A stretch of 523 bases of DNA from Escherichia coli. Lineage in GTDB: Bacteria > Pseudomonadota > Gammaproteobacteria > Enterobacterales > Enterobacteriaceae. The stretch lies in NCBI RefSeq assembly GCF_003334765.1, contig NZ_QOWT01000116.1; one strand, 5' to 3'. Below the pieces are notes generated by a model that saw only the letters and a list, made by a program, of their open reading frames with translations, was not told the origin of the DNA and searched no databases. Below, piece by piece: positions 1-523 of this stretch; the first letter of the stretch is position 1; every line of letters begins with the position of its first letter. Position numbers and translations under genes: made by a program.

Positions 1-351
1 GGTGGTCACTGCGATACCGCGATTGCCTCTGCGCTTTCCATCATCGTCGCGCCGCTGGTACGCGGTCGTATTCCGACGCTGGTGGATAACGTGCTGACCT
101 GCATCACCCCGGGCTCCAGTGTCGATATTCTGGTCACAGACCACGGCATCGCTGTTAACCCGGCACGTCCGGAGCTGGCAGAACGTCTGCAGGAAGCGGG
201 GATCAAAGTGGTTTCTATTGAGTGGCTGCGTGAACGTGCGCGTCTGCTGACCGGTGAGCCACAGCCGATTGAATTCACCGACCGCGTCGTTGCCGTTGTG
301 CGTTACCGCGATGGCTCGGTGATCGATGTTGTGCATCAGGTGAAGGAATAA
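1..351 (+). CDS. citF: Citrate lyase alpha subunit (citrate CoA-transferase), C-terminal fragment; 5'-partial, CDS continues upstream of the window. Stop codon TAA at 349-351.
   Basis: Frame 1 is open from base 1 to TAA at 349-351 (GGHCDTAIASALSIIVAPLVRGRIPTLVDNVLTCITPGSSVDILVTDHGIAVNPARPELAERLQEAGIKVVSIEWLRERARLLTGEPQPIEFTDRVVAVVRYRDGSVIDVVHQVKE*). I recognise this translation as the C-terminus of enterobacterial CitF from memory, not from a search. Codon usage is E. coli-like (CTG Leu, CGT Arg, GGC/GGT Gly, ATC Ile). It is immediately followed by citX, as expected for citCDEFXG. The ORF-track start at 82 is an internal GTG (Val) codon, not the true start. Confidence 0.9.
   Translation, partial: GGHCDTAIASALSIIVAPLVRGRIPTLVDNVLTCITPGSSVDILVTDHGIAVNPARPELAERLQEAGIKVVSIEWLRERARLLTGEPQPIEFTDRVVAVVRYRDGSVIDVVHQVKE
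342..348 (+). promoter_or_regulatory. Ribosome-binding site (Shine-Dalgarno, GAAGGAA) for citX, embedded in the last codons of citF
   Basis: GAAGGAA at 342-348 has its AGGA core at 344-347, leaving a 7-nt spacer (348-354) before ATG 355. This matches the anti-SD complement and sits within the canonical spacing range. It overlaps the citF codons AAG-GAA and the stop. Confidence 0.6.
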
Positions 352-354
352 GTC

Positions 355-523
355 ATGCACCTGCTTCCTGAACTCGCCAGCCACCATGCGGTGTCAATTC
401 CCGAGCTGCTCGTCAGCCGGGATGAAAGGCAAGCACGGCAACACGCCTGGCTCAAGCGCCATCCTGTTCCACTGGTCTCCTTTACCGTGGTTGCGCCTGG
501 GCCGATTAAAGACAGCGAGGTCA
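355..523 (+). CDS. citX: Apo-citrate lyase phosphoribosyl-dephospho-CoA transferase (holo-citrate lyase ACP synthase, EC 2.7.7.61), N-terminal fragment; 3'-partial, CDS continues downstream of the window.
   Basis: ATG at 355-357 is preceded by a Shine-Dalgarno at optimal spacing. The open frame runs to the window end, giving [57 protein letters not shown] recognise this as the N-terminus of E. coli-type CitX from memory, and its position directly downstream of citF matches the known operon order. It is absent from the supplied ORF track, presumably because it has no stop inside the window. Confidence 0.88.

Follow-up and report, generated by a model that had tools for sequence, protein, structure and literature searches.

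Among the 2,987 co-directional gene pairs of Escherichia coli, 707 belong to a class with intergenic distances of -8 to +6 nt, which are considered candidates for termination-reinitiation (PMC10666635). When the stop codons of three native E. coli pairs were moved from -1 to +2, +14 and +38 nt, reinitiation dropped by 5, 20 and 70 % at +2 nt (30-95 % retained) and by 80-100 % at +38 nt (PMC10666635). Coupling is most efficient at small distances, and both the Shine-Dalgarno (SD) sequence and RNA structure influence it (PMC12548453). The pairs hyfH-hyfI, ydbH-ynbE and menD-menH (Huber et al. 2019, 2023), for which coupling has been measured, are co-directional, overlap natively by 1 nt (-1 nt) and have the downstream gene's SD located within the preceding open reading frame (ORF). 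Coupling through RNA unfolding is represented by atpH-atpA, rpmI-rplT and the coat-lysis pair of MS2 (PMC12548453). The citF-citX pair of E. coli resembles the hyfH-hyfI type, in that the two genes are co-directional and the putative citX SD is located within the citF ORF, but differs in having a gap of +3 nt, which likewise places it inside the -8 to +6 nt class. Here the likeness is one of geometry, and the pair combines a subunit with a maturation enzyme rather than two subunits.

The position of citX relative to citF varies among the described citrate lyase loci. In the citC2D2E2F2X2G2 cluster of Salmonella, citX is likewise found between citF and citG, while in Klebsiella pneumoniae it occurs together with citW (citWX) at a separate locus away from citF (PMC2735749). 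Since citX sits apart from citF in K. pneumoniae, linkage between the translation of CitX and that of CitF is not a requirement of the pathway. A literature search for coupling experiments on citF-citX, performed also under the name of the operon, returned nothing specific to this pair.

The citF-citX boundary in the analysed window

The stretch of E. coli DNA analysed here, hereafter the window, is 523 nt in length and spans the citF-citX part of the citCDEFXG(T) operon. The following features were distinguished, with GAAGGAA at 342-348, TAA at 349-351, GTC at 352-354 and ATG at 355-357 read directly from the window:

1-351, plus strand: 3' end of citF, comprising the last 116 codons and the stop codon (open frame 1, TIGR01584, RefSeq)
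334-348, plus strand: last five citF codons, CAT CAG GTG AAG GAA (HQVKE), with the strongest synonymous-site constraint
342-348, plus strand: SD-like GAAGGAA for citX, with the core AAGGA at 343-347, 7 nt before the ATG
349-351, plus strand: citF stop codon TAA (direct reading)
352-354, plus strand: 3-nt spacer GTC, of constant length and variable sequence (comparison with K-12 and relatives)
355-523, plus strand: 5' end of citX, start codon ATG at 355-357 (translation, NF002383, TIGR03124, RefSeq)

The citF frame is open over positions 1-351, ends in the C-terminus ...VIDVVHQVKE and is truncated at the 5' edge of the window, while citX is stop-free over 355-522 and truncated at the 3' edge. 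When 5,426 complete E. coli genomes were searched with the window by megablast (at least 95 % identity), 5,422 gave matches, in all cases annotated as citF and citX in RefSeq. The 116-amino acid fragment of CitF, the citrate lyase alpha subunit, covers positions 376-492 of the 492 in TIGR01584 (E 2.6e-51), and its score of 175 bits falls below the curated NCBIfam cut-off (501 bits) only through truncation; a full-length CitF orthologue, the last 116 residues of which are identical to the window translation, scores 815 bits against this model. The product of citX is apo-citrate lyase phosphoribosyl-dephospho-CoA transferase, also called holo-ACP synthase, and its fragment of approximately 55-56 amino acids aligns with positions 1-56 of the citrate lyase holo-ACP synthase model NF002383 (E 3.6e-21). 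The full-length CitX orthologue scores 265 bits against NF002383 and 205 bits against TIGR03124, above the respective curated cut-offs of 158 and 105 bits. The gene names proposed in the first-pass annotation of the window are therefore upheld by both RefSeq and NCBIfam, and its coordinates for the motif, stop, spacer and start codon proved accurate to the base.

As the citX fragment aligns from the first position of NF002383, the ATG at 355 corresponds to the N-terminus of the family. The N-terminal sequence MHLLPE is furthermore kept in Escherichia and in most Citrobacter loci, and on the basis of this conservation and of the NF002383 alignment the ATG at 355 stands as the start codon. The next in-frame candidate, GTG at 391-393 (codon 13), was rejected, as it is not preceded by an SD and the NF002383 alignment begins at residue 1. 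A minus-strand ORF at 336-455 (39 amino acids, TTG start) was likewise discarded, being antisense to two well-supported genes and backed by no further evidence.

None of the complete E. coli genomes searched is identical to the window, with the best matches sharing 99.8 % identity. Strain GF131 differs from the window in one base only, a synonymous change at position 258, where the window has GAG and both GF131 and strain 746 have GAA. The K-12 genes citF (b0615) and citX (b0614) share the gene order, the 3-nt gap and the arrangement GAAGGAATAA...ATG with the window, and the 523 nt could be aligned without gaps, with sixteen substitutions (~97 % identical). One of these lies in the spacer, which is GCC in K-12 and GTC in the window, and the other differences are mostly at third codon positions. 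Of 5,421 complete E. coli genomes, 21 contain the 60-nt junction with GTC in exactly this form and nearly all of the others differ from it by one base, which makes the GTC spacer a minority allele in this species. It was observed both at the canonical dpiBA-citCDEFXGT locus of GF131 and at the second cit locus of strain 746.

Conservation of the junction and of the SD motif within citF

A single scan of species-representative genomes with CitX as the query yielded thirty-three loci for comparison. The arrangement AAGGAA-TAA/TAG-NNN-ATG, or a close variant thereof, with a gap of exactly 3 nt, is found in 29-30 of the 33 loci, including those of Escherichia, Citrobacter, Atlantibacter and other Enterobacteriaceae. 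The citF stop codon is TAA in thirty-one loci and TAG in two, and the spacer in the relatives is GCC, ACC, AGG or GCA, with its length unchanged. In three Serratia loci (L030-L032) CitF ends in Ala-Glu instead of Lys-Glu and the gap is 4 nt. Two of these have the sequence GCGGAG-TAA, containing GGAG, and one has GCAGAG-TAA, with a weaker GAG, and in each case the motif is still found 7 nt from the ATG despite the changed amino acid. A different arrangement was observed in Serratia microhaemolytica ZS-11, where a tandem array of the 15-nt unit TTGTCCAGTAACACA (L033 2833-2955; 8.2 copies, 90 % matches) is located between citF and citX, giving a gap of ~157 nt. The CitF C-terminus of this strain is LVQ in place of the usual VKE, and citX apparently starts at GTG 3001. 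Given that S. microhaemolytica tolerates such a gap, the tight junction is not obligatory.

The presence of an SD-like motif upstream of a start codon may be due to chance. The duplex between AAGGA and the 3' tail of the 16S rRNA (anti-SD) comprises 5 bp and is of moderate strength (-5.7 kcal/mol), being equalled or exceeded in anti-SD binding by three further sites in the window. An SD-consensus 5-mer is found 5-17 nt upstream of an arbitrary anchor at 1.8 % of the window positions and at 3.4 % in shuffled sequences, while a duplex of -5.7 kcal/mol or lower occurs at 7.8 % of anchors. Considered on its own, the motif is thus only mildly unlikely by chance, and for this reason the case for a functional SD rests on conservation. 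It is by conservation, and not by the motif, that the reading of the SD as a mere chance event, expected at ~2-8 % of anchors, is countered. Mean normalised synonymous entropy is 0.247 over the last five citF codons, compared with 0.593 overall, and among the 112 five-codon windows of the 116 terminal codons this one shows the least synonymous variability, as determined on 34 distinct related sequences with statistics that ignore shared ancestry. The lysine codon of the SD motif, from which the first G of the GGA core derives, is invariably AAG (29 of 29 sequences), whereas lysine elsewhere in the same segments is encoded by AAA and AAG in a ratio of 45 to 6. Together, the minimum in synonymous variability and the invariant AAG codon point to a citX SD which is real and selected at the nucleotide level, and which is more than a consequence of the protein sequence. 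The 3-bp gap and the placement of the SD in the final citF codons, as described in the first-pass annotation, are both recovered in this comparison, the latter with backing from codon usage.

Probable reinitiation and alternative routes to CitX

The most probable reading of these data, to which we assign a probability of about 0.72, is that the citX ribosome binding site (RBS) in the last citF codons is maintained by selection and that CitX is produced mostly by reinitiation after CitF on a single transcript. Under this reading, citF and citX would be carried on one mRNA, on which the putative citX RBS consists of AAGGA, a 7-nt spacer and AUG and is embedded in the last two citF codons. A ribosome terminating at the UAA at 349-351 would physically cover both the SD and the AUG, so that a free 30S subunit would have to wait for its departure. 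Most CitX would then come from ribosomes that, having just completed CitF, start again 6 nt further on with the assistance of the SD, with some additional de novo initiation of citX probably taking place on mRNA that is free of translation. Translational coupling of citF and citX is plausible, given that the gap of +3 nt is within the range which allows termination-reinitiation in E. coli, and the location of the citX SD inside the upstream ORF is that seen in coupled pairs. The translation of citX may from this geometry be inferred to depend on that of citF. The suggestion in the first-pass annotation that the arrangement is typical of coupled genes agrees with the membership of this gap in the -8 to +6 nt class (PMC10666635).

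Equal output of the two proteins is not obviously needed, given that CitF is a structural subunit of the lyase and CitX acts catalytically in maturation. Unequal amounts are plausibly required by the pathway, which would favour a second explanation, in which the genes are co-transcribed but CitX is made mainly by free 30S subunits binding to an accessible RBS, the short gap reflecting genome compaction and not coupling. The predicted absence of sequestration of the citX RBS is consistent with this, as is the long gap in S. microhaemolytica, and a conserved and selected SD would equally be needed by a stand-alone RBS. As the SD and AUG are predicted to be open, independent initiation could occur on untranslated mRNA. 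At a distance of 3 nt, however, the terminating citF ribosome would block the SD and AUG and delay de novo binding, and reinitiation is efficient at +2 nt in E. coli (PMC10666635). In addition, the spacer varies in sequence but keeps a length of 3 nt (4 nt in Serratia), which suggests that the distance itself matters. Predominantly independent initiation is thus considered unlikely, though it deserves some weight alongside predominant reinitiation.

Structural control of citX would call for the RBS to be closed in the mRNA. As in atpH-atpA, rpmI-rplT and MS2 coat-lysis, a hairpin involving the SD is predicted for citX, and it could be proposed that the citX RBS is closed by pairing of 339-348, which includes the SD, with 365-369 and 374-378, and that only ribosomes translating the 3' end of citF would open it. 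In the minimum free energy (MFE) fold of 336-382, the SD is base-paired to CUUCC at 364-368 (-10.7 kcal/mol, 48 % of the ensemble), and the SD-pairing fold is seen again in longer contexts. This hairpin is, however, no more stable than those of shuffled sequences (z -0.62; 50 of 200 shuffles as good). In an alignment of 23 junctions, 21 of which are distinct, there is no compensatory pair change among the distinct sequences, the covariation score does not reach the mean of the shuffles, and in 15 of the 21 the central A-U pair of columns 18-37 is broken. Furthermore, the whole-window partition function gives unpaired values of 0.55 for the SD and 0.75 for the AUG, against a window mean of 0.36. 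The SD-sequestering hairpin at 339-378, although it is the MFE fold, was therefore set aside as a candidate feature on account of its ordinary stability, its lack of covariation and its open state in the ensemble, and the modelling does not support a regulatory role for it. The stable and conserved inhibitory structure around the downstream RBS by which RNA-unfolding coupling is recognised is not found at citF-citX, where the hairpin is neither unusually stable nor covarying and the predicted state of the RBS is an open one, and control of citX by unfolding of this hairpin is accordingly judged very improbable.

The two genes are in the same frame, being separated by TAA and 3 nt before the ATG, and readthrough of the stop codon would thus produce a CitF-CitX fusion. 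That a fraction of ribosomes does so has next to no likelihood in our estimation. The in-frame arrangement can be read directly from the sequence and the 3-nt gap recurs in nearly all of the loci compared, but a gap of three nucleotides is in frame by arithmetic and not by design. The predominance of TAA among the citF stop codons also speaks against readthrough, as termination in E. coli is efficient at UAA when the next base is G or A, and the 4-nt gap in the Serratia loci L030-L032 breaks the citF-citX frame. No readthrough signal was seen at the junction. A more elaborate proposal would have rare UAA readthrough yield a fusion which tethers the prosthetic-group transferase to the lyase complex that it matures or, in a milder variant, have the 15-nt CATCAGGTGAAGGAA act also as a regulator site which sets the CitX:CitF ratio. 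If the milder variant were true, CATCAGGTGAAGGAA would be conserved beyond the needs of the SD as a regulator binding site. This proposal is regarded as a far-fetched one, and reinitiation after CitF is retained as the preferred source of CitX.

The first-pass annotation had also held that the junction leaves no room for an internal promoter or terminator. For the 3-bp gap this stands; beyond it the statement does not hold, as promoters can lie inside citF, and a promoter within citF would be compatible with the geometry. A pattern scan for sigma-70-like promoters and intrinsic terminators found none on either strand of the 523 nt, which is weak negative evidence considering that weak or non-sigma-70 promoters may escape such a scan.

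Operon context and significance

In the annotated regions of K-12, GF131 and 746, the genes lie on one strand in the order citC-citD-citE-citF-citX-citG, either separated by short gaps or overlapping. The distances in K-12 are 14 nt for citC-citD, -4 nt for citD-citE, 10 nt for citE-citF, 3 nt for citF-citX, -26 nt for citX-citG and 50 nt for citG-citT. Junctions tighter than that of citF-citX are thus present in the same operon, namely the 26-nt overlap of citX and citG (L002 7485-7510) and the 4-nt overlap of citD and citE, which is of the ATGA type (10488-10491). Standard conditions give hardly any transcription of the cit operon (PMC5888115), and existing ribosome profiling datasets are for this reason unlikely to be of help in following ribosomes across the junction.

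Some E. coli genomes carry a second cit copy, with the window matching at 5,467 places in 5,422 records. In strain 746 this copy is located at NZ_CP023353.1 909480-922002 (L001 1-12523), in surroundings that differ from those of the canonical locus, in a region which includes a GntR regulator, an amidohydrolase, an MFS transporter, citCDEFXG, an acnB paralogue and IS66 remnants, with citT and dpiAB absent from the region. The CitD and CitE proteins of this copy have the same protein accessions as those of the canonical GF131 locus. The second cit copy of strain 746 has the appearance of an accessory island that arose by recent duplication or transfer.

The junction is the ordinary citF-citX boundary of E. 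coli, already known and present in the annotation of all E. coli reference genomes, and the first-pass annotation was justified in treating it as expected operon architecture without novelty, its anatomy lying wholly within the tight-junction class. As this class holds about a quarter of the co-directional gene pairs in E. coli, the junction has little significance beyond its own locus. What is added here is a quantification of the selection acting on the SD inside citF, a negative result for a regulatory hairpin, and the identification of a rare GTC spacer allele. The junction nevertheless serves as a clean textbook example of an RBS that is contained in the final codons of the gene upstream. 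The invariant use of the rarer lysine codon AAG, and the switch to GCG-GAG in Serratia, show selection acting on the mRNA signal and the protein together. For the engineering of citrate lyase, recoding of the 3' end of citF, for example from AAG to AAA, would probably lower the level of CitX and hence that of the holo-enzyme.
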